Position numbers and translations under genes: made by a program. The notes beneath the pieces were generated by a model. That model was given only the letters and a program-made list of their open reading frames with translations. It searched no databases and had not been told where the DNA came from. From NCBI GenBank assembly GCA_008632985.1, contig QPGO01000126.1, forward strand, positions 186,001-239,979: a DNA stretch of 53,979 bases. The letters are read 5' to 3'. The first letter of the stretch is position 1. Each line of letters begins with the position of its first letter. Shown one piece after another: positions 10,021-39,770 of the stretch. Source of the stretch: Psammoneis japonica (lineage: Eukaryota).

Positions 10021-10221
10021 ACTGACGTACTTGGTGGAAGTTTCGAAGCGGAAGATCCAGATTTCGATTTTTTTGACACCACTCCGCCGTCACACTCCAT
10101 CCTGGAATCCATCATCCATCATCACCACACCCAACATCACCAAGTGATCAGCTCATCAATTCTGATCCAGAATAGGAAAAGCAAAAGGATCAGCCCGTGT
10201 ATCTGTGTGAGAACTATTAGG

Positions 10222-17291: not shown

Positions 17292-18142
17292 AAATTTTCA
17301 CAGCAAGAACGAAATAAACCAACTTTGATAACCTTTTGCAGTCACAATTGCGAGAAACTTTTTACTTTGTTTATTCAAAAATGCTTGCTCCACAACTTGT
17401 GAGTCCTGCCGTTTGTCTCATTTTCTTCACCACGTTTGATCCAGTCGCGAAGAGAAGCGCGAAACCTACTGAGTGAGGTAAAGTGGGTATCTTTCGAAGT
17501 GAACATTTCCACGATCATATAGAAGACATTTTGTATATGTAGATAGACTATCGGCGTCAACTTATTCTGCGAGATTGAATTAAGAGACAAAAGCGGGTGC
17601 AAGCAGGATTCTAGTTTTTGATCGTTTAGCAGACTAAAAGTTGTAGTTCTGGCGTCTCTATTACCAATAAAGCTAATCCTTGGTGAATTGATAACCTGAC
17701 GATATTGAGACGTTATGGACAATTCCTTCAATGTTCATAGAGTTAGAAGAAACGAATGCGCTTTGTCAGATAAAGATACCGTGTTGGCCTTACGGTGCAC
17801 TCTCACTCTCTCTTCTGTCTCTAGGGACACACATTTACTCCACCGTAAAAATGATTTCCAACTACTGTATTGAAGGGTAGTAGAAAGGGCGACCTATGGT
17901 AACTATGGTGCCATGTACCAAACTTCCTGTCTGTAAAGAGCAATAATAAAACAGACTTCGAGGATGATAGACTGTACTGTATGGCAAATTCTCTTCAATG
18001 CCTACTACTCACCGGTAGAAGGCAATAATGTTACGCCTTGCACATTACACTACTTCTAATCAAATCCTAATAATTACAATATCCATGCCCAACCATCTAC
18101 AATACCAACCGAATTCCATCTCACCCATCACTCATTCATAAC

Positions 18143-19059
18143 TTACGCAAGTTTCTTCTTGATATGCGCAATGGCCTTTCCTGGGTTCAAATGCTTGGGA
18201 CAAACCTTTGTGCAATTCATAATGGTATGGCACCTGTACAGCTTGAACGCATCATCCAATTCCGCAAGACGCTTCGAGGTGGACCCATCTCGGGAATCCT
18301 CAATCCACCTGTAGGCTTGCATCAAAACGGCAGGTCCCAAGTACTTGTCGGCATTCCACCAATACGACGGACACGCCGTGGAGCAGCATGCACAGAGAAT
18401 GCACTCGTACATACCATCGAGCTTGGCCCGGTCTTCGCGGGTTTGCAAAAACTCGGCTTGGCCCTCTTGTTTGGGCGCCGCCGGTTGCAACCACGGTTCG
18501 ATCGAACGGTACTGTTCGTAAAAGTTCGACATGTCGGGCACTAAATCCTTCACCACGTGCATGTGCGGGAGCGGATAGATCTTGGTGGCACTGGCCGAGT
18601 CGTCAATGTAACTCAAACACGCCAACGTGTTGGTGCCGTTGATGTTCATGGCGCACGATCCACAAATGCCTTCGCGACAGGACCGACGAAAGGTCAAGGT
18701 CGGGTCTTGCTCGTTCTTGATCTTGATGAGCGCATCCAACACCATGGGACCGCAGTCATTTAAATCAACCGGATAAGTAGACTGCGAAAGACCATTGAAA
18801 GAGTATAAGTGTGAGTATACCATGACATAGGACAATTCAAGTCAATATAACAGTGAGACATGTCAATCACGAAATAACATATTCTTACCAAATACGGCTT
18901 TTGACTTTGCTCTGGATCCCAGCGATAAATCTTGAAGTACTTGATTCGTTCGGCTTGAACTGTCGCTGCACCACTTGTCTTTAACGACGCTTCCGTCGAT
19001 AAAGCTCGGAGAGCCACCACTCGAGTGGATTGCTTTGCAAAACTAGAGGCAAGCATCAT
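18143..19059 (-). CDS. SDHB: Succinate dehydrogenase iron-sulfur subunit, join(18143..18781,18889..19059), 269 aa
   Basis: Contains [36 protein letters not shown] and [13 protein letters not shown]. The GT-AG intron 18782-18888 keeps the frame, and there is a mitochondrial presequence. Confidence 0.97.
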
Positions 19060-21251
19060 GGTGGCGTTCGAGTTGCAATATGAACGACAGTAACAACAAC
19101 ACAGCAACAAGAAGAGCGAGAAGCAAAGAAGATGCGTCGATCATGTGCACGACAGATGCCGCAGAAATCCGTTGATTGGAGGATCGTTGTCTTCGGGGTT
19201 CGCAAGTGACGTCAACAATTCTGTGTGGAGTTCGCAAAGTAGGATTAAGACGACTAAAACATCCATTGCTTTCAGACTGTGTCGTGCCATTTTCTCTTCT
19301 CTCACACTTCATGTGCACATGCCTTCACTCATCTGCCCCATTCTCCAACTTTTGGCAAGACAAACTAAAAAATGCTCCAATTGGCCATGGGGCAGTGCAG
19401 CCACCTGCCATGATTTGACAAAAACAGAGCAGCATCCCCCCATCATTTCGTGGCGCACTCCTCAAAAGCACTTTTGCACAAAAATGCTTGTGCCAACACC
19501 CCCACGTCACCACGAAAAATTGTTTGACGACATGCAAGAGCATCTGCCACAGAGGAGAGTCTTGACAAAAATGGCAACAAAAGAGAGAGAGAGGGGTGCA
19601 TGTGCTTTTTTTTCTCTGAGAAAGCACCCTCGGGAACACTGGGCACACACAGAAATTGTGGGTTGCTGGCTCTTCGGTGAGAAATGCTGCGGCACACATC
19701 ATGAAAAAAGGAACTTTGCTGCCAGACAAGGAGTGTTTGGGGGACATCTCCAGCCAGCCACTGGCTAAAAAAATTCTGTCCGTCAGTGCATTGGGGGCAC
19801 AACATTTTTGACATTTTGGAATTTCATCTAATTTTGATCCTGGGCCAAGAGCAACGAGCGGCACATGTTTCACCATGATGGAAGCTCCAGCGCATTGCCA
19901 ACAATGTGCAGCAGATGTTGCTGGCATGCATGAGATGCTGAGAGTTGAGCTCAATCCTTGTGGCCATCTTTTGTGTCTTCGCTGTCTTTCAGAGCTGGAA
20001 GCGGCTCGAGGAAAGAACTCGCTTCAGTGCACGGTTTGCGACCATGCTGTCACCAGCCATCAAATTTAGAGAGCACCAACAACAAAAAGTTGAAAAAGGA
20101 CAGGATGGAAGAGAGCAAGGAATGTTGATGGAGATGAGCTTGAGGTGCAAGAGATTTCACGAAGCATCATTCATCATTGAGCCTCACGAGGTTGTCGATG
20201 CGCACTTTGTCCGTGGCTGGCAAATTTGAGAAAGATGGGTGAATCAGATCAAAGAGGCTGGGTGGGAAATGGATTGTTGGCAAATGTGATGCACAAGATG
20301 TCATTTTCTGAGAATCACCAGCTTGAGCTGCAGAAGCTCCAGCAAACTCTGTCTGCCAATGCCGAGTTCCTTCCCTCAGCGACTGATGAACAAAACTGTG
20401 TTGACACCAATGTTTGGCTCCACTCGGCTGTGGCACCATTGTTGTGCACTTTGTTAGAAGGCAACGAGGAAGAGGGGCATTCAGTCATGCAGACTCCTGA
20501 CAATTTGCTTTGGCATGTGGCAAATGTTGATTCACGGATGCTCGGGGAGGGTTTTTTTGCAATGAGCACTGGCCATGTGCCACATCAAAACATCAACCTG
20601 AAAGATGCCGGGCACCAGTCCCAGGTTTTTGCTGTGGCCATCTGCCAAGATCTGACAGTCTGTGCAGCAGATCCAAAGAAGGACATTGGTCATGCTGCAA
20701 ACACTCTGTCATTTCAAGTTCAAACAAGCCAACAAACACAGCTTTGTGAGCTCTTGGCGAGGATGAGACTTGTCAGCAAGTCTTGCAGTGCACTTTCACA
20801 TGATCTTTGTAGAAGGGCAGCAGAGGCAATGGCTCAGCGCACTGACCTTGGAACTCACAAGCCTCTTGTTTGTTCTGGGGACGATGTCAACATGAAGGAC
20901 GGTCAGGGCGGTGCTGCTGAACAGACAGCAATGCCTTTCAGGTGCCTCCGATTGGTGAACTGCCCTGCAATCAGGATCCTCCGCTTGATCGAAATTGCAC
21001 CGATTGGAGCAAATGGATGAAGGAAAGCACTGCTGACAAAGTCCTGGCAGTGTTCTTGCCAAGCAAAAAAGACACACATGAAATTGGGGAAGTGGCATTG
21101 TCTGACTTCACTGCCATTCTGCGTGACCTTAACGCGATGCCGTGGGGGGTCGAGGAGTGCAACAAATTGTGCTCTCCTCCACATTTGTTTGTCACCACCA
21201 AGAAGATCCCACATCTTTGGCATGTTGGCAACAAGCCAGATGTTCAACGAC

Positions 21252-22277
21252 TGTCATGTATCCTACCCAAAGTGCGAGCTCCACATATAGATGAGATGCC
21301 GTCATGCTGCCTGACGGTTACCGGTAAGCCTCTTTACCATCTCGCTCGCTCAGTGGGCACTTTAATGTCTTAACCATTGAATCAACTAGTACATCGCCTA
21401 CGTGGACATATCACCACACGCGACATCCTCCTTACTAGTGACTTCAATGTTCTTCGTTCACAACGATCCTCCTCGTTCCTATGTCAAGTCGGTTGCTCTG
21501 AGATTCCTGATTCCCAAGTCAGAGAACCGGTCTGTACACCGCTCCTTCTCATCCCTTCGAACAGAAAGTCTCTTTCGAGTTTCGAACCTTCGACCTCTTT
21601 TGACTTCACCGCCAATCAGAACTTTCAGCTGCTCAGACCTCGTCTTGCATCCGCTGTGCCAGGAAGCTATGTAGGNNNNNNNNNNNNNNNNNNNNNNNNN
21701 NNNNNNNNNNNNNNNNCCTACATAGCTTCCTGGCACAGCGGATGCAAGACGAGGTCTGAGCAGCTGAAAGTTCTGGTTGGCGGTGAAGTCAAAAGAGGTC
21801 GAAGGTTCGAAACTCGAAAGAGACTTTCTGTTCGAAGGGATGAGAAGGAGCGGTGTGCAGACCGGTTCTCTGACTCAGGAATCAGGAATCTCAGAGCAAC
21901 CGACTTGACACAGGAACGAGGAGGATCGTTGTGAACGAAGAACATTGAAGTCACCAGTGAGGAGGATGTCGCGTGTGGTGATGTGTCCACGTAGGCGATG
22001 CACTAGTTGATTCAATGGTTGAGACATTAAAGTGCCCACTGAGCGAGCGAGATGGCAAAGAGGCTTGCCGGCAACCGTCAGGCAGCATGACGGCATCTCA
22101 CCATGTCATGCATCCTGCCCAAAGTGCGAGCTCCATGTGTGGATGAGATGCCGTCACACTGCCTGACGGTTGCCGGCAAGCCTCTTCACCATCTCGCTCG
22201 CTCAGTGGGCACTTCAATGTCTTGACCATTGAATCAACTGGTGCATCGCCTGCGTGGACATGTCACCACACGCGACA
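21252..22277 (-). mobile_element. LTR retroelement with 174-bp LTRs (21252-21425, 22104-22277); interior collapsed or rearranged
   Basis: TG...CA direct repeats flanked by the duplicated target AACGAC (21246-21251, 22278-22283). On the minus strand, the purine tract AAGGAGGA abuts the left LTR and TGG follows the right LTR. Confidence 0.8.
21676..21716. other. Assembly gap (N run) at the centre of an inverted duplication
   Basis: 41 N. The segment at about 21290-21675 reappears reverse-complemented at 21717-22099. Confidence 0.95.
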
Positions 22278-23059
22278 AACGACTTTGTTCCAGTTGGCAG
22301 GATTGTGAGGAAAGGATTGTTGAGAAGATGGTCGAAATCAATGCCACATGGAACAAAAACCACATTCATCCTTGTCCAATTCAGAATGTGACATTTGGGT
22401 CACGGGGGACTGTGTGCGGCATCGTGGGTGCATTGAATTGTCAAGCTGATCATCAGATGGCAGCATGCAAGAGTGCACTCTCACAAGGCCTTGACATGCC
22501 TGCACTTGGGGTGCCAATGTCTGCCGATTCTGCACTCTTTTCAGCAGATGGCGCAATGGCAGAGATGATGGGCCGGATGTTGGACGAAGATGCGTCAAAT
22601 GCTGTCCAAAAGTGCAGCAAGTTAGTTGTCGTTCCCGGTCCTTTCCATTGGAAGAATGACACTTTTAAAAAAGCCAATCATTCAAGTGAAGATTGGGCCA
22701 CACATGTTGGAGACCAGTTTGCTGGAAAGGATGGGGAGAGTGCCTTGGACAAATTTTGTTGTTTCTCACTGACTTCTCTGACCCAACTGTCCCCAAAATG
22801 TGGATTGAAGCGGCAATGGCAGCAGTTCCAGCTGCAGTCTGTTGGAGCATGAAGGCATCAGGAAGGCAGCAAGCATCACCAGCTGATGCTTGTGACTGGA
22901 TGATCGAGCGAGCAATGGAAAGCCCTCAAACAATGAACCTCGTTCAAATGCATTTTGGTTGTCTTGTCATGAGGCACTTCAAATGTGCACTCAGAAACAA
23001 TCTGTGGGATCGACACTTGAGTGCAATTTGATTGAGCACGCCATTGCAGGCTGTGATGC

Positions 23060-23456
23060 GACGCGCTCCAGCTCTGGGTGGGACCTTGCACCACTGCACT
23101 GTGACATCAACAGTTTTTTGGATCGCGTCGCATGTCACACACGTGCATTTCTACGTGTTGTGTTCTACGAAATTGTTTCATGCTCCCTGTTTTGCAAAGC
23201 CAAAGGCTTTCTATTTTCAACATTCATGAGAATGAAAATGTGCTGGGCATGTTCTTTGATGTCTGAAGAACACACCCGGGCAAACTGTTGATGATGTGCT
23301 GCAAGCATGGAGGAGGAGATGCGTTCGTAAAATTGCCTCTTTTTCTGTTGGCGATCATGCATTTTTTCATTGCAGTGTGAATTTGCTGCAGAGCTTGCGC
23401 GCAGAATTCTACAGGCCCAATGTCACACGGAGTCCCACCTGGGACTGGAACCCGTC
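23060..23456. mobile_element. MITE copy 1 (GACGCG-TIR family, diverged interior)
   Basis: Ends gacgcgctccagctctgggtgggac and gtcccacctgggactggaacccgtc. Flanks are ATGC and GTGC (3 of 4 match). Confidence 0.75.
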
Positions 23457-25191
23457 GTGCATGGAACTCTGCACTCCAGGATGGCCGGAGATCTCTTTTG
23501 TGAGATGCTGCAGTGTGTTGGTCCCAGATGGAGAAGGCGGTTGTAAAGGATCTCTTGTTTGCATTGAAGAGCAAACAAGATGAGCACATTGAACGTGACA
23601 TCATGCAAGAGAAGCATGTCCGGGTCATTCATGAGAGAATCAGCAATGAATTGAAAAGGGGACATCAACCCAAAATCGAGGAAGCCACCCAAGCCGCGGT
23701 CTTGCAGGCAAACAAGAGGCATGCAAAGCATGTGATCAAGCACCTTGGTCTCGATGAAGAGGAACCATTGGAAACAAAAAAGGTGTTGTCGGGCTGGACG
23801 CAGAACAAACGGGCAACAAAGGCACATGCACAAACATTTCGATTGTTGACAAAGGGAAAGTTCTTCTTGCCAGGTCTGTCAGAGAATGAAGAAAATGACA
23901 AGTCTCTCATTTCGGTGAGAGACAGAGAGCCGTTGGAGATGCAAGGCAACTCGATGCATGAAAGATTGGAGCCACGCGGCGGACAAGGTGCATTGCTGAA
24001 TTCCTTGTCAAGAGTCAGCATGAGGTCCTCCGAAAAGAAAAGGACATTGGAGTGGAAAGGATTCCAGCTGCAAGCCAGAAAATTGCCAACAAAATTGAGC
24101 AACACCGGATCAGGCAAGTGTCAACTGACGTTGAAGAGTTGAAGAAGAGCGGAACCATCAAAGAAGAGATTCATGGAGCATTCTCCATTTTAGAGCCACA
24201 TCCAAGTCGCGGCTCAAGCAGTCGTGGACTTGACACCTGCAAAACTGAGCGGAACAACCAAGACGTTCTTGGTCAGTCATCTTGTTCAGTTGAGAAAGAC
24301 CCTTTTTCGTCATCGGCCAGAACTTGTTCCAACTTTGAGCAATGGCATCAGGGACAAAGCAGGAGATTCTACCACATCACAAGAGAGGAGAGAGGAAATG
24401 CCAGGTGACAAGTTTTGTGCTCAGAGGGAGTGCCCAGCGCACATGGATCAGCTCCATCTTGACAGAAAAGGTTTGTTTCAGTTGCAGCTGAGACAATCTG
24501 TGGCATTTGTTTGCATTGCACACATCAGGTGCAATCTGTTCTGCTTGTTTTGAAGCCTTGCTCAATCTCAACAGAGTTGCAGAGAGAGCAGAAGATGACA
24601 GCAGGCTCAAGTTGAAGTTCTTTGGCTGAATCTTGATGTGGTGTCAGCGGTGTCTGGTGTGCTCGCACGAGCTGAGCATTGGATCACTCAGAGTTCTGAA
24701 TCCAAGTCAATGATGCACAATGTGTGGCAAGTGTTTTGGCTTGTCTCTGCTGAGTTCTTGACAGTTTCACGCTTTTGATGCTTCACTTTCCTCTCTGAGT
24801 GAGTCTCACTCTCATTGTCATCAAGGAACCACAGACGCGTTCCAGCCCTAGGTGGGACTCCGTGTGACATTGGGCCCGTAGAATTCTACGTGCGAGCTCC
24901 GTAGTACGAGAATTTAATTAATGGATATATTTATCTTAAACATCAAATAAATGGCCAAGTTTGTGGTACAATTATGCGTGTCACCACTTGACGTTTTTGC
25001 AAATGCGCCTGCCCTACGCGATTCTTAAGACATTATAGAATCGCGCTGTAACAAAAAATGTCAAAAGTTGTTGGACGTATCGCTCAATAAGTGTACCGTA
25101 AAATGACACAAAACATCGAAAAAATCACGTAGAAATCTACGTGCGCGACATACGACGTGTTTCAAAAAACTATCGATGTCACAGTTCAGCA

Positions 25192-25353
25192 TGCAGTGTC
25201 TCGCACCTTATTTTTCTGATATATAGTATTAATGAATCTATTAGATATAACGGAAGCCGTTGTAACGGGCTTCGCTGAAAGCGACCCTCGTTACCTCGGT
25301 CTTTCGCTCACAATTTTGTTGTCACTGAAGTCTTTATCTCGTTAAACCTTGCA
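25192..25353 (+). repeat. Gypsy 5' LTR
   Basis: TG...CA direct repeat of 30416-30577; retains 14 TpA. Confidence 0.93.
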
Positions 25354-25587
25354 CTGTAATTACAGTCGATTTAAAGAACTGGATGGAGACTAGGAATAAT
25401 ACAAACAAATTGACTAAACGTGAGAAAAGAGAACTGCACGCAAGAGCAGCAGTTTGGGCTGTCGAGCACCAGAAACAAGTGCAACAACGTAAATGACACG
25501 AACAGAATTTGGCGAGCCGAGTGCATCATTTGGAGTCAAAGGTAGAGTCCCTGGAGAGGACCATTGAACAATTGCATTCCCTTTTTC

Positions 25588-26809
25588 ATGATGAGTGAAT
25601 CGTTGAAGGAGCCTTGCACTGGCTGTGAAGCTAAATTTGAGCATTCTGACTTGGAGGAAGTGAAATTGACCCAATCGCATGATGACGGCAGCACTCGTAC
25701 AAAAAAAGTGTCCGCGTTTTGATGGCACTCATGGCATTGAAGCATTGTCATTCGTTGAGGATCGTTTTCGTAAAATTGCTGTGAAATTGGAGCACACTGC
25801 TGGCGAGGAATTGTTCGAAAATTTCGAGGAAGTGCTTGCGGATGCTGCAGAGGACAAGTGGGCGAACTTGACCAATGCAATTGACGATGCCGATAAAACT
25901 GTCGAGCGTTTTGATCAGGAAATCAATTGTTTTTGCTTGTCTTATTGTGACAATGAAGCGCGTGATGCGATGATTGAACATTTGCCAACTTTGAAAAAAC
26001 CATTCAAATCTGAAGTGCAGGCGCATGCAGATCGCATGGAAACCTTGATTCGGTGCTCCAACAAACTTCCAGGAAATGCTCCTCAAGTCAACGAAGCTCA
26101 GAAGAAAAAGATGACATTCGACAGCTTTCCTCATCCGTGGCGTGAGATGTGCACTCGAGCAGGACGAGCGACAGCGAACGACACTCTCGCTGAGATCATC
26201 AGTTGTGTGAACAACGAGAAATCTTTTGCTGACAAGAGCAGCAACAAAAAGCAGGACAAGAAGAGGAAAAGCAATGGTGTTTTGTCTCAAGCTTCAAGAC
26301 GCTCTCGTGGCAACAGTGGCAGAACGGATCCAAAATCTAGATGCCCGGTGCATGCGAATCACGACCACAAGTGGAAGGGTTGCATTTTGAATCCAGAAAG
26401 CCAAAACTGTCGACCGAGGTCCGACCGTGGCGGTCACAGCGGAGGTCATGGTGGAGGCCGAGGAAACCACCAAGGCAGAGGACCCCAAGGTCGAGGCGGT
26501 CGTGGTGACTTCCAAGGTCGAGGACGTGGCAATTGTGGCAATCAAGGAGGACATGGAGGCCGAGGTTACGGCAATTGTGACAACTCCCAGAATTCTCAAG
26601 GGAATGGATCCCATTGCCAAAATCAAAACGGCACCCAAGCCAACGGTGACACCCAAGGCTGTGGAAATCCGGCTGGAGCAGCTCCTCCTGGTGGCTGGCA
26701 AATGGAGTCGCACCATTTTGATCAAGGAGGGCCTCGTGAGATGCGAGGTGGAAATGGATGCGATCAGAACGGTCGCACCCATCAAGGCCAACGAAGTTGG
26801 CGTAATTGA
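25588..26809 (+). pseudogene. gag: Gypsy gag (1-nt frameshift in the A7 run near 25701)
   Basis: Capsid-like helical region, CPVHANHDHKWKGC zinc-knuckle variant and a G/R/N-rich tail. Only 2 Tyr in the 376-aa ORF. Confidence 0.75.
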
Positions 26810-29800
26810 CAAGGGACGGAAGTGCCCGAGTCAGAGCGTGTCGCTCAATCTTTTTATGTTTCGTGTGATCGTGAAGAAAATGTGTGTTTTAATGTTGATG
26901 ACAATGTGGGAGACCTGATGGAATCTCACACTGTGAATGAAGAAAAATTGGGCAGCGTTTTGGAGCACGCCATGCCAACCCCTAAAACTGTGACTCCCAA
27001 ACCATTGAATGTGGTGCCAACGACGTTGATGGCGGCGCGTGCCATTCAAAATCAAGAGAGCAAGCGAGTGTTACGAGTGCCATTGGATTCAGGAGGTGCT
27101 GACACTCTTGTTCATTCTCGAGTTTTGCCGAAGGGAGCGAATCCAACCATGAATGATGAAGGACGGTTGAGCTTTCAGACGGCAGCCGGACGACATAAAT
27201 CCTCCCGATACGTTGTTATGAAGGACTTGATGTTGCCAGAATTTGACAAGTCAAAACAAGTCGATGGCATTGCGGCTCAAGTTTTTGATGCCCCATGCAA
27301 GTGTGATTTAATTTTGGGACAAGACTTTTTGTCGAAAGCCGGAATCGTACTTGATTTTCGATTTGGAACAACAAAGTGGTTGGAAACGTCGATCCCAATG
27401 AAGCAATCCAATCATTGGAACTCAGTTCAGAATTGGTTGGATACACTGGAAGACGACGGAGAGGACGAAGACGATGAGGGAGCCTTCGGACAATCTTTCA
27501 TGATGGACGCCAAATGCGAGAAAGCATCATCCGCAAAAGCAGCGCAAACTCAAACTCACTTAACTCAAGAGCAACGTGATGAGCTACAGGCAGTGCTTGA
27601 AAAGCATGAAACCCTCTTTGATGGAATGCTTGGCAAACATCCGCATGAGACTGTTCACTTGGAAGTTGATCCCAACGCTGCTCCCTTCCATTCTAAGGCT
27701 TGCGAAGCATCCAAGAGGGATGAAGCCGTTTTTAAGAAAGAACTACAACATCTATGTAACATTGGCACATTGGAACCGTGGGACCAACTGAATGGGCAGC
27801 CGGAACTTTTGCAACTCCCAAAAAGGATGGACGAGTTCGATGGGTGTCCGATTTTTGAGAGTTGAACAAGGTGCTCAAACGAAAGGTCTATCCTCTGCCG
27901 ATCATTCAAGACGTCATTCACCGACGCTCGGGATGCAAGCACTTGACCAAGTTGGACCTCACTGTGTTTTATTGTCACATCGAGCTTGACGAAGAATCCA
28001 AGGATTTATGTGCTGTTGTCACTCCGTTTGGAAAATTTCGATGTTGTCGATTGGCCATGGGTTTGAAAACCTCTCCTGACATTGCTCAAGCCATCATTGA
28101 AAAAGTGGTAAAAGGAATCGATGTTGAAACTTACATTGATGACATTGCTCAATTTGATGATTCGTTTGATGCTCACATGCGTCGACTCGATGAGCTGTCA
28201 TCCAGACTAGAAGAGAACAATCTAAAAATTAACCCACTCAAGTGCGAATGGTGTGTCCAAGAGACGGATTTTTTAGGCCATTGGCTCACGCCTGCAGGAG
28301 TCCGACCGTGGAAGAAGAAAGTGGAAGCAGTGCTACGAATGCAACCACCTAAAACTGTGACGCAACTACGATCGTTTGTCGGTGCGGTGACTCATTGTCG
28401 CAACATGTGGCCTCGTCGTTCACACGTGCTCGCTCCACTCACGAAGTTAACAGGCAAGAGCAAGTTGGAATGGACCCCTGAATGTCAACGAGCCTTTGAA
28501 GACATGAAAACCTTAATGCTGGACGACACCCTTTGGGTCCACCCGAATCATAACAAGCCATTCCATGTTTGTGCTGACTCTTCGGACTATCAGATGGGAG
28601 CCGCAATTATGCAAGACGGGAAACCAGTGGCTCACTGGTCCCGAAAACTCAGCGCAGCACAACAGAACTACTCTGCGATTGAAAAAGAATTGTTGGCGGT
28701 GGCAATGTGTTTCAAAGAATTTCGAAGCATGTCATTTGGAGCTGATTGTGCTGTTTTTACGGATCATAAAAATCTCACCTTTCGTACGCTCAATTCTCAA
28801 CGAGTTCTTAGGTGGCGACTCTTCTTGGAAGACTTTGCCCCAACTTTTGAATACGTTGATGGCAAAGATAATCTCTTGGCGGATTGTTTTTCAAGATTGC
28901 CACGTGTGGACCCTCCTGCGGAAGGGAAGTGTGCTCCTAACAAGGGCAAACTGATTGATTTTAAAACCATCGACCCTGCCATGCCACCGCATGAAGAAGA
29001 ACTGGACGACCAAAACAGTGTGTCTTATTTTTCCTGTCGTCGTGAAGAACCATCTCCATTTTACTCTTCCGTCGTGGACGACCCCGAATCATGTGAATCA
29101 TTTTTGAACTGTCCTTCTCTCGAGGAAATGCAAAACCCTGCAACTGTGCAACGAATTCAAGAGTGCCAATTCATCGACGTGGAGCTGAACAACATGCGAC
29201 AACAATGTCCAGAACGCTTCATGGTGGAACATGTGAATCAGCATCCTGTAATTTGTTGTCGTGCTCAACCGAATGATCCTCCGACTGCGTGGAAAATTTG
29301 TGTTCCAACGGCGTTGCTGCATGACATCATACGATGGTGTCACAGAATTTTGGGACATGCAGGAGTGCACCGAATGCATTCCACTGTTGGCGCACATTTC
29401 TGTCATCCTGCCCTTCGTCAATCCTGTGAAAGATTTCATTGCACCAATTGTCAACGTTTGAAAACTTTGGGCCCTGGACATGGGGACCTGCCTGAACGGG
29501 AAGCGCCTTCATCACCATGGACAGAAGTTACGGTTGACCTCATCGGTCCCTGGAAAATTGAAATTCAAAACCATGAAATCGAATTCAACGCTTTGACTTG
29601 CATTGACACCGTTTCGAATGTGACTGAACTTGTTCGTGTCGACAACAAAACCTCATCTCACATTGCTCAACAATTTGAAAATTGTTGGTTGTCTCGTTGC
29701 CCTCGTCCGAACCGGTGCATCCATGACAATGGTGGAGAATTCATTGGAGAGGACTTTCAATTGTTGTTGCAACGAGCAGGAGTGGAAGACGCTCCAACTA

Positions 29801-30303
29801 CGTCGCGAAACCCACAAGCCAATGCGGCATGCGAACGCATGCATCAAACTGTTGGAAATGTCTTGCGCACTTTGCTTCATGTTTGTCCTCCACAGAATGT
29901 TGAGCAGGCCAATCAACCAGTGGACAATGCATTGGCAACCGCCATGCATGCAATGCGATGTGCGGTTTCTCGTGCTCTCAAGATTTCACCCGGTGCCATG
30001 GTTTTTCAACGTGACATGATTCTTGACTTACCGGTCCTAGCCGATCTTGCTGCCATTCAAGAACACCGACAAGCGATTGTCAATGCGAATCTCCGTCGAG
30101 CCAACGCTGAACGCCGGTCCTGCGATTTTCAAGTTGGTGAACACGTTCTACTCAAGGCTGTCGACCCAACCAAGCTCGAGCCACGAGCTCACGGTCCATG
30201 TCCCATCGTTCAAGTCCACGCCAACGGTGCGATTTCGGTCCAACGTGCACCTCATGTGACGGAACGATTGAACATTCGTCGCGTCGTCCCGCATCGCACC
30301 TGA
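26810..30303 (+). pseudogene. pol: Gypsy pol (protease, RT, RNase H, integrase)
   Basis: Contains LDSG, YIDD, DSSDYQMGA, EKELLAV, TDHKNL, ADCFSRL, H..GH..C..C, VDLIGPW, HDNGGEF and NPQANAACER. There is a frameshift near 27779 and an in-frame TGA near 27857. Confidence 0.93.
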
Positions 30304-30415
30304 GGTCAAGGGTTTTCTCCCCAACATTTGGGTTTCCCTTCTATCCTCATCCATTGGAATTTAAATTTTTTGAGTCCCGCATGATTCTCGACACTCGAAT
30401 CATGGAAGGGAAGAG

Positions 30416-30577
30416 TGCAGTGTCTCGCACCTTATTTTTCTGACACATGGCATTGATGAATCTATTGGATGTGACGGAAGCCGTTGCAACGGGCTTCGCT
30501 GAAAGCGACCCTCGTTACCTCGGTCTTTCGCTCACAATTTTGTTGTCACTGAAGTCTTTGTCTCGTTAAACCTTGCA
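30416..30577 (+). repeat. Gypsy 3' LTR
   Basis: Follows the PPT and differs from the 5' LTR at 10 positions, all within TpA. Confidence 0.93.
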
Positions 30578-31505
30578 CAGCAGTGCGAGGTCCCACCTAG
30601 ACCTGGAACGCGTCCACAGAGCAGTGGGTGCTGTCATCCCCAGTCATGTGCTCGATGCACTCATCATCGAAAGGAAGGTTCTTGTGGTTGAGACCAATGA
30701 CAATTCTCTTTGGATGAGGCAGAATGGCTTTGTCCAGTGGAGCAACTCCATTTTTGAGTGGTGTGCCAACATTTCGCTCCAAAACAAGAGACAACTTGCA
30801 GTTGACAGGAACATCTCGCACCAGTTCCATGGCATCGGCCACAGATCTCTCAGCAGCCGCCAGTGCTCTGCGGACAGGTCATGACATTGCATGGTGTGGC
30901 TTCACCAGCGAGTCTTCACGAGTGCATTGGCGCTTTCCTGAAAGCTTTTTCCCACTTGCATTGTTCCCAGCACACTCGCCCAGCATTTCCTGAGTGTCGG
31001 AACAAAGCACGACCTTCTCGGGTTCCAGAGTGTGCTCATTGGAAATGGCAGGACATTGATGTGTGCACTTCAATCTGTCAAACTCCTTCCTTTTGTCATC
31101 TGGAGACAAGCTGCTCCACCAATTCATTGCAACAAGCTTCTCTTGAAGTGTCCTCACATCAAGGATGAGGGACATTGGCAAGCGACATCCATCGGCAGCA
31201 GTTTTCATTCCACGCGGGAGTGCTTCTCTGAGATTCTCTTGCAAAGCTCGGGTGGCGTGGAGCTTTGGATCCGTCCACACACCATTGTCATTGTCTTTCA
31301 TGTTGTTTGGCAGCATGGTGTCATCAATGAGAGCCTTGACTCCACGAATCTTCACCACTGGAATTGGAGCCATGGATCCAGCTGGTGACGATGGAAGCAT
31401 GAACCCCCGCCTTGCACACATCACTTGCATCAGGTGTGACAGTGTTCATGGAAGGCATTGGACACATTGCAGCACACAAAATGGAAGCCCCTGGGAGCCA
31501 TCTTT

Positions 31506-31895
31506 GATGCGTTCCAGGTCTGGGTGGGACCTGGCACTGCTGAACTTTGACATCAACAGTTTTTTGAATCGCGTCGCACGCAGCGCACGTAGATTTCTAC
31601 GTGATTTTTGCGACATTTTGTGTCATTTTATGGCACACTTGTTGAGCGATCCATCCAACAACTTTTGACATTTTTTGTTGTCGCGCGATTCTACAATGTC
31701 TTGAGAATCGCGCGGGGCAGGCGCTTTGGCAAAAACGTCAAGCAGCAAGAGGCACAATTGCACCACAAACTTGGCCGTTCATTTGATGTTGAAGACAAAC
31801 ACATCCATCAATTAAATTCTCGCACTGCAGAGCTTGCACACAGAATTCTGCGGGCCCAATGTCACACGGAGTCCCACCCAGGGCTGGAACATGTC
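31506..31895. mobile_element. MITE copy 3 (uninterrupted, inverted relative to copy 2)
   Basis: Ends gatgcgttccaggtctgggtgggac and gtcccacccagggctggaacatgtc, with 4-bp TSD CTTT. It carries the empty Gypsy target (a single CAGCA on the minus strand). Confidence 0.85.
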
Positions 31896-33483
31896 CTTTT
31901 GCCATCGTCATCAGCGTCAAATTGCGCCAACAGTGCGTGTGTTGGGTCGTGGAATTTGTGCCCCTGATGCACTGACAGACAGAATTTTTTCAGCCAGCAG
32001 CTGGCTGGAGACGTCCCCCATGTTGGAAATCCAAACCGAGGTGCACAAGTGGGCTTTTTGTGTGTTTGACAAAAAATGGGGTGTGAGACAAGCCCCAGCT
32101 GCCAAACAAACAAAAGCTCAGATTTTGCCAAATGACTTGTGTGTTCTTCATTGTTGCCTTTCTTGACAAGAAGCAGTTTTGCAACAAGCTGGGGCAAATG
32201 CAGGCCAAACATTTGCCTCCAGTGGTCTGGCTCAAGAGGAAAGTGACGCTGATGTCATGCCAACACTCTTTCTGGCTCCAGGTGATCCGCGCGGGTTCGA
32301 TTCCCAAAATTTGGCAATTTGTGCATTTGGCACATTGAACTTTTTCAAAATCTGTTTTTTGCCAAATCGAAGGGTGAGTGTGCACTTTTCATGTGTTTTT
32401 GGGTGTGCACTTGCCTTTCGATTTTCAAAACGATCAAAATTGAAGGAGTTTGATGCACCAAACTGTGCAGAAAATCGGCCTCTTGCGCGACGAAAAGCGG
32501 ATCACCTGGAGCTGGAACAGGCCTTCTGCCAGCCACCAGTGAGCTGCTCTTCTCCGAGAATGATGGCAGGCGGGGAAACTGCCTGGTTTCATCATGGCGC
32601 ACTGAGATGCTGAAAGAGCCACAAGAGCACAGCACACAATTTTTGGCTGGCTGCTGCGTGGGAGCTTGCATGTGCAGGTTGCCAGCGCAAGAGAAACGAG
32701 GCTTTGGCTCAGCAAAATGCTGAGGAGGTCTTCCCACACCCAAGCAGTGCCAAGCAGCTGCCAATGCTTGCTCCCTGTTTGGAGGAACTGGGCTCAGCAT
32801 GCCACAATTTGTGTCCCTGGTCCAACCCTGGCTGAAGCTTGCAGCGCCACTCGAGAAAGCAAAACGAAACCACACACTGCCGAGGTTTGTGATGACTGGT
32901 GAGCCAATGAAATGAATCACATGAGGGGAGAGAGAAGCTCTTTTTCACTTGTTTCATCTGACATTTGAATGGCAGTCATGGTGTCTTCCGGGCCAAGTTG
33001 CGGTGTTGGATCGTCGTGCAGCTCCGAAATTTTTGTCAACAAAACAAAATGCACCAGCTCTGTGTGTCGGGGCGCGGCTGCTGCAATGGCAGTGACCAAC
33101 AAAAATGTCGAGTGAGTCACGGATGAGACGTGCGCTGCATGCATCAGTCGCGCAATAGGGCCCGCTACTGCTGTTGACTGCACGCGCTCCAAAAAATAGA
33201 ATCGACTAATGTCATGAAGTTCAACAATCTCCGATGATTCACGGTTGAACTTTTTGATGCCTGTTTCTTCTTTTCCGCCGGTTGCTTTTGGTCGTGTTGG
33301 GGTTCCTCTGTTGACAATAGTGGCACTATACAACACCATGCCCTGTGAACTCTCGTGACGTTTGTTTCATTCACCGAAACACTCACGTCTCACAACAAAA
33401 AAGTGTGTCTAACACTGCAGCTCTCGGACTCATTATCCTTGATTTGCGGCTTTGATTTTATGCATCTACAATATCCCGGCAGC

Positions 33484-35774
33484 ATGAACTTGTCCGTCGC
33501 TGCTTCTTTTCTATTTGTTGTTGCTACCCTGCACGCTGCGAAAGGTGAGAAGAGTGGCATTGTACGACGAATGCACGTTTCTCAGCGGCATTCACGAGCT
33601 AACAAATGCGCGTTTTCCCAACCCATCAAGCGAACATTACCTGCGAGACTGCTCAAGTTATACAACCGAACTTGGATGGGACGCCCATCCTCACGGCCAG
33701 CACGCAGGGTGGATCAGACCCTGGCTTCCCCTGTAATGCGGGAAACGATAGCCCGGCTATCTATTACCAGTTTGTGGGGAATGGTGCGCGAGTCCGTATC
33801 TCTACATGCTCTGCTGCTACCAACTTCAATACGGAGCTAATTCTCGAAGACGACGACAGAACGTGTGGCGATGCTCTTCCATTCTGTAACCCCCCCTCGA
33901 GCACTCTGGATCTGGGTTGCGACCCCAGTGGGCAAGCCGTGTTTCTTGAGTTTTTCACTATCCCCAACCGTTTGTATCTCCTTGCGGTGCAAAGTCGAGA
34001 CAATGATGCAGTCGGTAACTTTGGTTTGTCTTTTCTGGAGTTTCTCCGTCCAGAAAACGACCAGTGTGAAGGTGCAATTCTCCTGCAGCCACGGGGTGAC
34101 TCGGAGCCGGTGGTCACTGGCGAAACTGTAAACGCCACCCGAGGATCCTTCCCGTGCAACGCAGGTAATGACAGCCCGGCCGTCTTCTACCAATTCCTCG
34201 GCACTGGGGGAGAAGTCCGTCTGTCGACGTGCTCCAACGTTACCAACTTCAATACAGAGCTTGTTGTTGAAGACAATGGCAGAACATGTGGCGCTGGTCT
34301 TACCTTTTGTAATCCGCCCACGAGAACTCTGGATATCGATTGCGATCCCACAGGGCAGGCTGTGGTTGTTGATGTTGCCACCGACGCAAACCGTTTCTAT
34401 CTTGTTGGTGTGCAGAGTCGAGATAGAGACGGGACTGGTACCTTTGGATTGAGTTTGCAAGCACCTGGATTTGGAGTGACGCCCCCACCTGTTACTCCGG
34501 CGCCATCAGCAAGCACGACTCTGACTTCTAGTAGTTCACCAACCACGACCGACGTTGCCGGCCCACCTTCATCAGCACCAACGGCAATGAGTCCTCCCTC
34601 ATCAGCACCAACGGCAATGAGTTCTCCCCTGTCTGGTCTGCCTTCTTCCGCAACCCCAACGATCGCTTCTACGACATCTCAAACTACGGCAGGTCCCGGA
34701 GGCGTTCCACCAAACAACGCATGCGAGACTGCACAAGTTATTCAACCGAACTTGGATGGGACCCCCATCCTCACGGCCAGCACGCAGGGTGGATCAGACC
34801 CTGGCTTCCCCTGTAATGCGGGAAACGATAGCCCGGCTCTCTATTACCAGTTTGTGGGGAATGGTGCGCGAGTTCGTATCTCTACATGCTCCGCTGCTAC
34901 CAACTTTAATACGGAGCTTATTCTTGAAGACGATGACAGAACTTGTGGCGCTACCCTTCCTTTCTGTAATCCCCCCTCGAGCACTCTGGATCTGGATTGC
35001 GACCCCAGTGGACAAGCCGTGTTTGTCGAGTTTTTCACTGTCCCCAACCGTTTGTATCTCCTTGCGGTGCAGAGTAGAGACGATGGTGCAGTCGGTAACT
35101 TTGGTTTGTCTTTTCAGGAGTTTCTCCGTCCAGAAAACGACAAGTGTGAAGGTGCAATTCTCCTTCAGCCGCGGAATGACATGGAGCCGGTAGTCACTGG
35201 TGAAACTGTAAACGCCACCCGAGGAAGTTTCCCTTGTAATGCAGGTAACGACAGCCCAGCTATCTTTTACCAATTCCTCGGCACTGGGGAAGAAGTCCGT
35301 CTATCGACGTGCTCCAACGTTACCAACTTCAACACCGAGCTTGTTGTTGAAGACGATGGCAGAACATGTGGCTCTGGTCTTACTTTTTGCAATCCACCCA
35401 CGCGAAATCTAGATATCGATTGCGACCCCACAGGCCAGGCTGTGTTTGTTGACGTTGCCACCGAGGCGAACCGTTTCTATCTAGTTGCTGTGCAGAGTCG
35501 AGACAGCGATGGGACTGGCACCTTTGGATTGAGTTTGCAAGCGGGAGTCACTACTTCGACATCTCCTCCAACGACCGACACGCCAACGACGACGCCACCT
35601 ACGCGACTCTCCACTCCCGTTCCGTCACTGTCTCCATCCGATGCACCATCCGCCATTCCTTCAGGATTCCCGTCCTTTTCCCCGAGCTCATCTTTGGCCG
35701 CTGAAACGAGAGTGGTTGGATTGTTTTGGACTGTGCTTTTGAGCAGTGTTGCTGCAGTCCTTGCCATCGGGTAA
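33484..35774 (+). CDS. Secreted, probably GPI- or TM-anchored surface protein with four Cys-containing domains of about 140 aa, join(33484..33544,33631..35774)
   Basis: Signal-peptide exon, then GT-AG intron 33545-33630 with a GCTAAC branch site. The architecture is A-B / Pro-Ser-Thr linker / A'-B', each domain carrying FPCNAGNDSPA..STCS..TNFNTEL..VQSRD..FGLS. The C-terminus is hydrophobic. Confidence 0.88.
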
Positions 35775-36239: not shown

Positions 36240-37363
36240 TCACGCCGCTTTCGCATCGGCTTCTTCCTTGTAGAGACACTCTTCCAACGACTTGGTGAGC
36301 CACTTGCGGTCGAGTCCCTTTCCAATAAATACAAATTTATTGATTCGCTCTTCACCATCCTTCCATGGTTCCTTGGCGGGACCAAAATTGATTTGTTCGT
36401 GCACCCCCTGAAAAACAAACTTGGTATTGCCTTGTCCGTGAAAGGACAGCACGCCCTTGGTTCTATAGAGATCGGCGGCACGTTCTCGTAACAAATCCAT
36501 CATGAAAATGTTAAACCACTGAGCGTGCAAATCGCCCTTGAATTGAACGCCGACACTCGACACGAGTTCCAAATTGTGTTCCTGCTTTTCCGCTTCCTGG
36601 TCCTCAAAAAAGTTGGGATCCGCACTCAGAATGGATTCCATATTGAACGAGTTTAATCCCAAAATCTTCTCGAGTGGAGCACGACTACGTTCTGTTTCGA
36701 GAATGGTGGCAAATTTGTTGATTCCCTCGAGACGCTTTGTGAGAGCTTGTTTTTCTTCCGCCGTGACCAAGTCAATTTTGTTGAGCAAAATCTTATCCGC
36801 AAACGCCACTTGCTGCAGGGCTTCATTGACACTACCCTCTGGTTTCTTTTCATCCAAATGTTGATTCAAATGCTTGGCATCGGCCAAACATACAATCGAA
36901 TCGATGCGATACGAATCCGACATTTTGGGATTGGTCTGTACCGTGTACACAATAGGAGCCGGATCGGCCAATCCAGTCGTTTCCAACAAAATGGCATCAA
37001 AGTCCTTGCAGCGTTTCGCCAATTGACCCAATGTACGAATCAAATCACCACGTACCGAACAACACACGCAACCATTGTCCATGGTAATGAGATCTTCGGG
37101 GGCATCCATGGATTCAGCGACTATATAGAAAAAAAGAATGCAAAACGTCCTGAGTTCAAATTTCTCTCAGAAATTGAATCACGTACAATGCAGTACAATT
37201 TCTACGTACCCAAACCATCGTCAATGGAAACTTCTCCAAATTCGTTTTCTAACACGGCAATTTTCCATTGCGTTTGTTCTTTCAAAATATAATTGACAAG
37301 TGTCGTTTTACCAGCACCGAGAAATCCCGTCACAACGGTAATGGGTGTCAAGTCGTCGGCCAT
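36240..37363 (-). CDS. cobW: COG0523/CobW-family (ZNG1-like) metal-chaperone GTPase, join(36240..37120,37210..37363), 344 aa
   Basis: Contains [43 protein letters not shown] and a CobW_C region (YRTKG..FQGVH..FVFIG). The GT-AG intron 37121-37209 keeps the frame. Confidence 0.93.
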
Positions 37364-37559
37364 GGTTGTATTGTGCTTCGGATCGGCTCTTTTTTTGTTT
37401 CTTGTGTGTGAGAATGCGCGTGAGTGAATGGCTGCTACGTAACCTGCAGTACTGAATGTACGTAGAATGCTTTTTCGCGCGATTGAATGAGCGCATCTGT
37501 TTGCGATCGATCGAGAGCTGCTCTGCACCGCCCGGCACCGCATTAATGGGCCTTTGGCG

Positions 37560-38650
37560 TGTGGCTGTGAAATCTGTTGACAAAATCAGAAAAAGGGAGA
37601 AGACCAGGCAAGCGCCAGTTGCAGGTGCAGCATGCCTCCTTTCGGGGGTCTGGAACAGGTTTGTTGTGACACTTCTTGTCTCAACCTGAGTTGTGGCAGC
37701 TTGAAGCAAAAAGTGGGCAAGGGAGCAGGGTGAAAAGGTTCTGGGCAGCCATGCTTGATGGAAAAAGGTGATGGAAGAAACAGCACGGGAAGGTGACAGG
37801 GCATGTGGCTGTGATGCAGCAGATGTTGAGTGTTGGCACTCTTGTGGTTGACTGTGGAAATCTGTTGACAAAATCAGAAAGAAAAACAAAAGTCAAAAGG
37901 CACGTGCCAGCTGCAGCATGCCTCCTGGAAGTCTGGAACATTCTTTCAATTTGGCACAACCTTTGTTGCAAGATTTCGAGAAGGAAGTTTGAGTGCCACA
38001 CAAGTTGCGTCACATGAAAAGGTGAGGTCAAATCACAAAGACTCTTGCACTGAAAGCAATGAGAAATGAAGAGCAAAGAGAGGGGCCACACTGGGGCAGG
38101 AAAGAGAAGTCCTGCTCAGTCCGTGCAGGATCCCATGGCCACAGAAGAAGAAAAGGTGGTGGCAGGTGGCCATGATTGATGAAAAAAGGTGATGGAAGTG
38201 ACAGTGTGGGAAGGTGACAGGCATGTGGCTGTGATGCAGCAGATGTCGAGTGTTGGCGCTCTGGTTGACCATGGAAATCTGTTCAACAAAATCAGAAAGA
38301 AAGACAACAGGCAGACAAGAAGTGCCAGCTGCAGTGTGCCTCCTGGTGGAAGTCTGGAACATTCTTGCAATTTGGCTCAACCTCAATTGTGGCAGCTTGA
38401 AGTCAAAGGGGAGGGGGAACAAGGGATCAGAGGGGGACAAACAATGGCACGCTGCACAGAAGACACAAAGAGTTGCATTTTTCTTGCATCAATTGCAAGT
38501 TTTGTGAAAGAAAGTTTGAGTGACGCACAAGTTGTTGTGTCTCATGTCAAAAGGTGAAGTCAAGTCACAACAAAGATTTTTGCTGTGCTGAAAGCTGAAA
38601 GCAATGTGAAATGAAGAGGAAAGGGGGAGTTCACTGGGGCAGAAGAAAAA
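37560..38650. repeat. Diverged tandem repeat, unit about 420 bp (about 37755-38110 vs about 38175-38640, plus a partial copy near 37565)
   Basis: Recurrent aaaaaggtgatggaag..ggaaggtgacag..gcatgtggctgtgatgcagcagatgt..ggaaatctgtt..caaaatcagaaa. Confidence 0.75.
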
Positions 38651-39770
38651 TCCTGGCTTGGTTCCCTTGTTGCTGGGATTTTCCTGTGGGCTCAATTTTG
38701 ACACATGATCAAAGCAGTTGAGAAAAGCAAACTGCAGCTGGGCTGCAGTCCTTCACCCAATTTGTGCCACCCAGACACACCCGCTTGTGCTTTTAGAAGA
38801 ACTGTGCAGCCACAACCCAACAGAGCTGGACAGCAACTCACAGAGGCAGTTCTCTTGCTTGTCATGCAGCTGCTTCCGAGACTTTTTGCATGTGAAGAAA
38901 AACAAGAGCAGAGCTCATTTCCAGCCCCTGCTGGTGGGGCTGGGATTCAGAGTGAAGGAGTCATGCTGTGCAACAGCATGAGCAAAGTTGCTGGAAATGA
39001 TTGAGACTGGGGTTGTGTGCATGGTGTGAAAAAAGGGGAACAGGAGCATTGAATCAAAAGAAGACAAAAAAGGTGCTGCAAAAGCAAGGGCACCCTGCAC
39101 TGAAAGGTTGCAAAAAAAGCAGCAGGTCCACTTGCTTGCCAGGATGTGCCACCAGCTGCATCGCTGTGAATTTTTTTTGTCATTGCTGTTTTTCTGTCTT
39201 GCACTCATTGTCCAAGTTTCTGAAAATTTGAACAAGGTGCTGAAGCAATGATGCACACAAAAAAAGGCTTTCGAGGCATGCAAATTTTGTCCAAACCGCT
39301 TCAAACTTGACCAACCACATTGCACACACAGGACGACCTTCTTTAGACTGCCTCAAGTGTCTCTGACAAACACCAGCTTCAAAAATTTCCTGGGGGCTCC
39401 ATCACATTTTTTCACTCAGATGGCACACACTTTTTGGAAATCCTGGCAGCCAAAAAAGGACTTGCCATGAGTTTGAGCTGACCAACAAAACCATCACAAG
39501 TGAAAATGAACCACCAATGGCAATCCACCTGACAAGCCAGTGCTTCTGCCACCGGTTGTGTTGCCCCTGAAAAACACATTGGACAAACAAAGCACATCGT
39601 AAAGTTGCTCAATGTTGGAAGAACAGTGATGCATCACAAGTGAGCATCGCACGGCGTTCAAACCATGGTCATCAAGCAAGGTTTCTTGATTGAAGTTGGA
39701 ATTCTCAACAGCCTTGTGTGCTTCCTCTGCACTGTGGGAAACCCTCCCCTGATCATAAAGTGTGGGGTCA

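Follow-up and report, generated by a model that had tools for sequence, protein, structure and literature searches.

The window analyzed here is a stretch of 53,979 nt from Psammoneis japonica (assembly GCA_008632985.1, contig QPGO01000126.1, positions 186,001–239,979 of the forward strand). It contains one Ty3/Gypsy long terminal repeat (LTR) retrotransposon at 25192–30577, the pol region of which occupies 26810–30303. This element was altered after its insertion and at the level of DNA: TpA dinucleotides were turned into TpG or CpA, symmetrically on both strands and within confined tracts, tyrosine codons became cysteine or histidine codons, and the open reading frames (ORFs) were left open. 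We consider it likely that this single Gypsy insertion was changed after integration by a process that acts on both strands of the DNA, is targeted to tracts and spares host genes. The TA odds ratio, calculated in strand-symmetric form, is 0.19 in the element and 0.32 in the whole window (CA/TG 1.43, CG 0.74).

The Gypsy copy lies on the forward strand between two 162-bp LTRs of the form TG...CA, the 5′ LTR at 25192–25353, which keeps 14 TA sites, and the 3′ LTR at 30416–30577. The same five bases, CAGCA, are read directly outside both of them as target-site duplications (25187–25191 and 30578–30582), and a polypurine tract, AAGGGAAGAG (30406–30415), abuts the 3′ LTR. Together, the LTRs, the duplication and the polypurine tract identify a single insertion. 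The interior starts with a gag-like ORF of 376 aa (25679–26809) that is rich in Gly and Asn, has two Tyr and ends in TGA; its position suggests the gag role, and a Pfam scan of this ORF gave no match. The protease-bearing ORF at 26822–27865 is in the same frame, and its part from 26822 to 27778, delimited by tblastn with homologues P0001–P0003 and by column counts, corresponds to the protease and linker of pol. This part aligns to homologues with weak aspartyl-protease Pfam matches, mostly under the curated cut-offs. Reverse transcriptase (RT), RNase H and integrase are encoded by an ORF of 813 aa at 27862–30303, assigned from the ORF call, Pfam and alignment. Its Pfam matches follow the Ty3/Gypsy order (RVT_1, RT_RNaseH_2, RT_RNaseH, Integrase_H2C2 and rve), and pol as a whole reads protease, RT, RNase H, integrase. 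The rve match is under the Pfam cut-off at 28.2 bits, as it is in all five homologues tested (22.8–30.8). The RNase H domains score 13–19 bits lower than in these five homologues, and rve and Integrase_H2C2 fall inside the homologue range, all of which is a weak measure of decay.

For comparison, 1447 homologues were found at E ≤ 0.001, and the best 120 of these (47–66% identity) were used for all statements about homologues below. In them, protease to integrase form one ORF of ∼1100–1200 aa. The pol ORF of the window is broken twice, by a frameshift zone at 27769–27781, where frame +2 passes into frame +1 (two high-scoring segment pairs overlap in the query, and the homologues continue in one frame), and by an in-frame TGA at 27856–27858 within the RT N-terminus, where homologue P0001 has Arg. 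The copy is therefore dead, and with 20 of 28 conserved Tyr changed to Cys or His in addition, it is not an intact, potentially active element. A cluster search with homologue P0002 returned only Gypsy-type clusters, one of which has two members labeled Bacillariophyta, a weak lead.

The timing and the nature of the changes are given by the LTR pair. LTRs of one insertion are identical at integration, as both are copied off the same template. Here, 10 of 162 positions differ, and at every one of them the 5′ LTR reads TA and the 3′ LTR reads TG (six) or CA (four). The other 134 bases, which are not part of TpA, are the same in both LTRs, and no CpG is changed. As a proxy for the rate, 10 of the 14 TA sites in the 3′ LTR were changed versus 0 of 134 other bases. 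Because the LTRs differ only at TA, the changes took place in the chromosome after integration; they affected both strands at a rate far above that of background mutation, and RNA editing or reverse-transcription error is excluded as their source. GC-biased gene conversion was also considered and ruled out, as A and T bases outside TpA are unchanged. The changes are strand-symmetric, as the element contains 464 TG and 401 CA, and ∼70% of the TA of the dead element was turned into TG or CA after insertion.

Two further repeat pairs in the window show the same pattern. One copy of a 185-bp repeat (21246–21430) keeps 13 TA, and its depleted partner (22098–22282, forward strand) has none; the two differ by 13 TA>TG/CA changes, two TG-versus-CA double mismatches and six transversions. 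Such doubles are the mark of one TA changed independently on opposite strands. A 41-N scaffold gap (21676–21716) lies between the two 185-bp copies. The second pair, copies of an element resembling a miniature inverted-repeat transposable element (MITE), contains 27 TA versus 5 TA, with 19 TA>TG/CA changes, none in reverse and three TG-versus-CA doubles. When the three pairs are pooled, 42 of 54 TA sites were changed to TG (29) or CA (13), 9 remain TA and 3 read otherwise, with no change in reverse; 42 of the 45 changed sites are thus TG or CA, almost exclusively A>G or T>C. A control pair from a coding tandem repeat in a block of normal composition (33626 versus 34706) differed by 12 transversions, 6 other transitions, 4 CpG-type changes and only 2 TA-type changes. 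It belongs to an ORF of 723 aa (33603–35774, forward strand) in which four 300-nt copies, 62–92% alike, are arranged in tandem and which has no Pfam match.

A sequence-only reading of this DNA had claimed that positions that are normally Tyr in Ty3/Gypsy pol systematically read Cys or His and that only about 8 Tyr remain in 813 aa. The 813-aa ORF contains exactly 8 Tyr (1.0%), together with 36 Cys (4.4%) and 36 His (4.4%); the homologue medians are 3.56% for Tyr (2.56–4.48), 1.79% for Cys (1.10–2.77) and 2.97% for His (1.89–4.57). The ORF was aligned with the homologues using MAFFT, and columns with Tyr as the majority residue were taken as Tyr columns. At 24 such columns the window has 6 Tyr, 9 Cys, 7 His and 2 Phe, and the protease part (26822–27778) adds 4 columns that were all lost (3 Cys, 1 His). 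Over all 28 columns there are 12 Cys, 8 His, 6 Tyr and 2 Phe, so the systematic replacement holds at 20 of 28. Of the 22 losses, only the two to Phe are conservative replacements, and the 20 to Cys or His each correspond to one transition at TpA. Tyr was kept at 6 of the 24 columns (25%) versus 399 of 513 (78%) for other majority residues (Fisher p = 1.4e-7). Columns with Tyr in 97–100% of homologues were among those lost (25, 38, 61, 179, 258 and 613), and retention showed no trend with conservation (Tyr fraction 0.81–1.00 in the six kept columns and 0.55–1.00 in the lost ones).

All nine Tyr positions in the eight motifs named in the same reading were borne out by the alignment. They are KCDLILG (protease residue 161, Tyr fraction 0.95 in homologues), GKFRCC (column 61, Tyr in 120 of 120 homologues), AVTHC (columns 178 and 179, 0.79 and 0.99), FHVCAD (column 237, 0.90), PVAHW (column 258, 0.97), RWCH (column 493, 0.55), SRCPRP (column 613, 0.99) and GPCP (column 780, 0.59). 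Cys or His is not natural to relatives at these columns: the homologues carry Tyr, and Cys occurs at each of the 24 columns in 0–2 of 114–120 rows. The proposal that the element was inactivated by missense stands as far as the loss of Tyr columns goes and has to be amended by the frameshift and the in-frame TGA that this copy has as well.

If TpA is the target, TpA spanning codon boundaries should be lost too, and this was observed. In 25 cases, 15 of them Ile>Val, an Ile, Met, Thr, Asn, Lys, Ser or Arg of the homologues is replaced in the window by its counterpart with G as first codon base. The base before the changed first position is T in 14 of these 25 cases versus 8 of 94 kept A-first codons (p = 1e-6). 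Codon use in the 813-aa ORF agrees with TpA loss, with ATA for 1 of 37 Ile, GTA for 2 of 61 Val, and 25 TTG versus 5 TTA.

The direction of change, from TA to TG or CA as the sequence-only reading had it, is borne out by the protein outgroups, by the LTR pair (10 of 10) and by the two further repeat pairs. It is polarized by three outgroups, which are the Tyr of the homologues, related elements and the TA-rich MITE-like copy compared with reads of its family. In 78 related metagenome elements, the TA odds ratio is 0.44–1.04 (median 0.70, none below 0.4), versus 0.19 here. The TA-rich MITE-like copy was compared with the deep family reads of run X1 and has four majority differences among the rows listed, none of them TA>TG/CA. 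Among 40 listed rows at which X1 has another letter, the window has TG or CA against TA in the other copy in 7, the reverse is seen in 2, and 2 are CA-versus-TG doubles.

A profile of the window in 500-bp bins (n = 107) alternates between two TA states with sharp edges. In 41 of 107 bins (38% of the window), defined as depleted by a TA odds ratio below 0.15, the pooled values are TA 0.05, CA/TG 1.67 and CG 0.43 at a GC content of 49.2%, and in the 40 normal bins (TA at least 0.4) they are TA 0.61, CA/TG 1.20 and CG 0.96 at 47.3%. Depletion is confined to tracts in mobile DNA, and host genes are spared, although for most depleted blocks the scans gave no origin. The genes have long exons and lie in normal bins: a peroxidase (9820–11406), an FAD-binding enzyme (15675–17291), a succinate dehydrogenase Fe-S subunit (18143–18841), CobW (36240–37166) and an MFS fragment. 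The claim that the process creates no stops also proved correct, as nearly all six-frame stops in depleted blocks are TGA (per kb, TGA 47.9, TAA 2.9 and TAG 1.9, versus 34.5, 19.2 and 18.1 in normal bins). With so few TAA and TAG left, long ORFs occur on all frames, and the three ORFs of the element all end in TGA. In 6.5 kb of depleted DNA, 26 ORFs of at least 80 aa were found across all six frames. Of 59 ORFs of at least 150 aa, 33 were scanned against Pfam, and none of those 33 that lie in depleted blocks outside the Gypsy element had a match; they are probably spurious. For the ORF at 39771–41294 (507 aa, reverse strand), in the deepest depleted block, no homologue was found.

The loss of CpG is nested within the loss of TA. 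A CG odds ratio below 0.5 was found in 28 of 41 depleted bins versus 1 of 40 normal bins, and six depleted bins keep CG of at least 0.8. Examples of co-depletion are 3501–5500, 7501–10000 and 37501–42000, and CpG is normal in the Gypsy element and at 51001–53000. The pattern resembles deamination of 5-methylcytosine at CpG in silenced repeats, in that the products are TG and CA and the same older blocks are affected. Unlike it, TpA loss is separable from CpG loss, which is slower: the Gypsy element has CG 0.92 with TA 0.19, and its LTR pair has no CpG change. The decay of CpG would thus be a slower, separate process in the same silenced tracts.

The signature matches the TpA hypermutation of Bigelowiella natans and now appears in a second, distant algal lineage and on transposons. 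TpA-specific hypermutation of integrated DNA of nucleocytoplasmic large DNA viruses (NCLDV) and virophages has been described in this alga (Mettrop et al. 2026, bioRxiv 10.64898/2026.01.13.699255). There, 231 of 302 new single-nucleotide mutations in mutation-accumulation lines fell in two integrated viral regions, and 230 of the 231 changed A to G or T to C, in every case at TpA. The rate was ∼6e-7 per site per generation, ∼1000 times background, in some lines only. The B. natans genome has 124 TpA-poor clusters rich in CpA and TpG, and RT and DDE domains are in excess among its TpA-poor coding sequences. As in B. natans, the changes in our window consist almost wholly of A>G or T>C, fall on TpA throughout and lie in discrete tracts of foreign DNA, with long-term loss of TpA, gain of CpA and TpG, and RT domains among the sequences hit. 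The targets differ: in B. natans they are giant-virus inserts, and here they comprise an LTR retrotransposon, MITE-like DNA and repeats of unassigned type. Depletion is also deeper here (0.05 in 38% of the window) than in the B. natans NCLDV region (0.45, with a 5% genome cut-off of 0.43). Three further features of our window are unlike B. natans, namely CpG co-depletion in older blocks, the spared 5′ LTR and a site preference in the order T-A-T > T-A-C > T-A-R. The lineages are not the same either, as B. natans is a rhizarian (a chlorarachniophyte) and the present host is diatom-like. We take the host to be a diatom on the basis of one gene, CobW. Among the best 120 matches listed for the CobW ORF (79–86% identity, none of 100%), the named organisms are diatoms (Attheya, Ditylum, Thalassiosira, Nitzschia, Helicotheca, Pseudictyota and others), with the exception of one MMETSP row with the organism tag Tiarin..., which was not recognized as a diatom.

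The site preference was derived from the survival of TA by tetranucleotide context, with 66 sites in depleted bins compared with 851 in normal bins. Surviving sites are mostly Y-TA-R. The depleted and normal counts are 13 and 34 for TTAA, 17 and 67 for CTAA/TTAG, 6 and 33 for CTAG, 13 and 132 for GTAA/TTAC, 10 and 124 for CTAC/GTAG, 3 and 71 for GTAC, 3 and 118 for ATAA/TTAT, 1 and 101 for ATAC/GTAT, 0 and 67 for ATAT, and 0 and 104 for ATAG/CTAT, so that ATAT and ATAG/CTAT together have 0 versus 171. This suggests a preference of T-A-T over T-A-C over T-A-R. Centered on adenine, the order of the 3′ neighbor is T > C > G ∼ A, and centered on thymine, that of the 5′ neighbor is A > G > C ∼ T. 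In the polarized pairs, C or T follows on the 3′ side of 29 of 42 mutated A versus 26 of 60 unmutated A, and C alone follows 16 of 42 versus 9 of 60 (p = 0.01).

The same process could proceed through thymine instead of adenine. The T in R-T-A would be enzymatically modified to a derivative of the 5-hydroxymethyl- or 5-formyl-uracil type that pairs with G, giving T>C without any adenine deaminase. Oxidized thymine derivatives mispair with G. As TpA is self-complementary, T-A-Y and R-T-A describe identical data, and the strand symmetry of the changes (464 TG versus 401 CA in the element, 12 Cys versus 8 His) suits this route too. The window data favor neither chemistry. The preprint prefers an ADAT2-like adenine deaminase, proposed for B. 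natans from a candidate gene alone (Mettrop et al. 2026, bioRxiv 10.64898/2026.01.13.699255). We regard the thymine route as rather unlikely.

How the tracts are bounded can be seen at the left end of the Gypsy insertion, which is nested in a MITE-like element on the forward strand. The left arm of this element (24835–25186) is spared, with 27 TA and an odds ratio of 0.90, and its right arm lies at 30583–30613; it has ∼25-bp terminal inverted repeats and a 6-bp duplication, CCACAG, at 24829–24834 and 30614–30619. Two more MITE-like copies are on the reverse strand, one with 5 TA inside a depleted block (delimited as 31537–31895 or as 31506–31890) and one at 23060–23456, so that of the three copies in the window one has kept its TA and two have been depleted. 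The nesting gives the order of arrival as old DNA, MITE-like element and Gypsy element. In one X1 contig, 24835 and 30654 are separated by just 34 other letters, so that the contig resembles a further copy of the old flanking repeat that lacks the MITE-like and Gypsy elements. To the left of the MITE-like element there are 2 TA in 836 bp, followed by 27 in 356 bp. A TA-depleted tract (∼25500–33000, not assigned to a strand) then comprises the element interior, the 3′ LTR and older DNA downstream, with 63 TA observed versus 332 expected at 25501–30415 and 6 versus 150 at 30578–33000. The spared part takes in the MITE left arm, the 5′ LTR and the first 60–140 bp of the leader, which places the edge at ∼25415–25490. 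Our guess is that the 5′ LTR is protected in a promoter-like manner and that this sets the edge. TA loss is no simple clock, because the older MITE arm keeps its 27 TA beside the depleted Gypsy interior. Copy number is not the trigger either, as the spared MITE stretch is high-copy: the summed depth in run X1 is 75,000–117,000 over this stretch, 1,700–3,900 over the Gypsy interior and ∼65–75 over single-copy flanks, which corresponds to well over 1000 copies of the MITE-like family and ∼30–50 related copies of the Gypsy element.

These edges bear on the possibility that a neutral, genome-wide bias away from TpA is at work, with selection keeping TA in genes, so that the depleted blocks are merely old, unconstrained DNA that nothing has targeted. 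Consistent with it, depleted blocks outside the Gypsy element have no recognizable genes (0 Pfam matches, and the ORF at 39771–41294 without a homologue), and gene blocks too are below 1 (TA 0.61). However, LTRs of the same age differ 10 to 0, the MITE arm, though it arrived before the Gypsy element, has TA 0.90 beside an interior at 0.19, an intergenic bin (17501–18000) has TA 0.91, and the step from 2 TA per 836 bp to 27 per 356 bp is abrupt. We therefore consider a neutral bias improbable.

A sequencing or assembly artefact would be another explanation, with modified bases at TpA miscalled as G or C. Modification-linked transition miscalls are made by some long-read base callers. Against this, 59% of sampled 31-mers of 24000–33000 are found exactly in run X1, single-copy flanks have 0–1 other letters, and every site is consistently called TG or CA. 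The 41-N gap in the window is typical of paired-end scaffolding, and the same signature in B. natans came from Illumina data (Mettrop et al. 2026, bioRxiv 10.64898/2026.01.13.699255). An artefact is very improbable.

Editing before integration (ADAR-like A>I on RNA, or a bias of the RT) and long-term selection against UpA in an active lineage were weighed as well. The substrates of ADAR and APOBEC3 are RNA or intermediates of reverse transcription; APOBEC produces G>A/C>T, and the preferred 3′ neighbor of ADAR is G. The window resembles ADAR or APOBEC3 editing of retroelements in its clusters of deaminase-type transitions with a neighbor preference, and the ∼30–50 related copies would suit an active lineage. 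Unlike such editing, the changes here came after integration, with an LTR pair that differs 10 to 0 though copied from one template. Both strands were changed, the DNA-transposon-like MITE and non-coding repeats were altered alike, and the 3′ neighbor order T > C > G ∼ A is not that of ADAR. The loss of near-invariant Tyr (column 61, 120 of 120) and the frameshifted pol also count against this group of explanations. A 5′ U is favored by ADAR, as cited in the preprint (Mettrop et al. 2026, bioRxiv 10.64898/2026.01.13.699255). All told, we give these explanations scarcely any weight.

The reverse direction, with TG/CA ancestral and TA-rich copies made by C>T at CpA/TpG in the manner of repeat-induced point mutation (RIP), has a negligible chance: a pairwise difference has no polarity by itself, but the outgroups contradict it (120 homologues with Tyr at the Cys and His of the window, relatives with TA 0.44–1.04, and a TA-rich MITE-like copy with none of its four listed majority differences of the type TA>TG/CA), and a depleted TA of 0.05 is far under any normal composition. 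RIP in ascomycete fungi changes C to T mainly at CpA, makes TpA, lowers GC content and creates stop codons. The process in the window is like RIP in that a dinucleotide-specific transition hypermutation wrecks transposons in tracts, far over background. Unlike RIP, it destroys TpA and creates no new in-frame stops (TA 0.05 in the blocks, with TAA 2.9 and TAG 1.9 per kb, in place of C>T at CpA, a TpA excess and stops), and copy number is not predictive, as a MITE-like copy with more than 1000-fold depth was spared.

In the mechanism that we propose for post-integration TpA hypermutation, A:T>G:C changes at TpA within codons would turn Tyr (TAY) into Cys (TGY) or His (CAY), and those across codon boundaries would turn Ile, Thr and Lys into Val, Ala and Glu. 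They would be laid down in tracts. In the window these include many older repeat-like blocks besides the 3′ LTR and the inner part of the element, and leave out host genes, the 5′ LTR and the adjoining MITE arm. As no new in-frame stop could arise, elements would be killed by missense, with long, misleading ORFs remaining. The underlying reaction may be enzymatic deamination of adenine in 5′-T-A-Y-3′, with A read as G after replication, and targeting may follow chromatin state or an RNA guide in place of copy number. We infer that the process is a silencing or defense activity or a by-product of one.

Several points weigh against this explanation. A targeted silencing or defense activity is suggested by the targets only. 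The loss of CpG in older blocks means that more than one process shapes them. The normal, gene-rich bins used for the site preference only stand in for the ancestral make-up of depleted blocks, and a purine before T was not seen at the eight Tyr>His sites, which have two each of A, C, G and T. A simple rule of 'transcribed region' or 'repeat homology' does not account for the spared 5′ LTR and leader, since it would include the leader. Run X1, the only DNA run found to contain the stretch 24000–33000 (no RNA run was listed for it), has short contigs, none of which spans the element; it is possibly the assembly's own data and thus no independent proof of the letters.

A broader proposal is that diatoms have a RIP-like defense of opposite direction. 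In it, a tract-targeted editor would deaminate A (or modify T) in 5′-T-A-Y-3′ and wipe TpA from transposons soon after insertion, independently of copy number and respecting promoter-like boundaries such as the 5′ LTR. We hold this tentatively, with somewhat less than even confidence. If it is true, diatoms, which as stramenopiles are far from Bigelowiella, would possess a natural A>G editor of double-stranded DNA. Two distant algal supergroups would then share the activity, which would have to be ancient in eukaryotes or to have spread horizontally.

Targeted natural A:T>G:C hypermutation of DNA was unreported before the 2026 preprint on one rhizarian alga; our literature searches for such TpA hypermutation in diatoms or elsewhere returned only that preprint, and other papers may exist. 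The same signature, deeper and on transposons of a diatom-like genome, suggests that the process is widespread in marine algae and that much of their non-genic DNA is shaped by it. A natural experiment is offered by the LTR pairs of single insertions, with which the process can be measured genome-wide without mutation-accumulation lines. The preference T-A-T > T-A-C > T-A-R offers a concrete substrate for candidate deaminases or thymine-modifying enzymes, and an enzyme that makes A>G in chromosomal DNA would be of interest to the base-editing field. For annotation, the loss of TAA and TAG means that long ORFs in such tracts are no evidence of genes, and 'proteins' poor in Tyr and rich in Cys and His are diagnostic of the process.

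A direct repeat was also noted in a TA-free block with normal CpG near the right end of the window (51250–51640 and 52804–53194). Its copies are 1554 bp apart and ∼97% alike, and 8 of their 9 mismatch events are at TG/CA, TA or CG dinucleotides, including three TG-versus-CA doubles. The two copies may be the LTRs of a small element.

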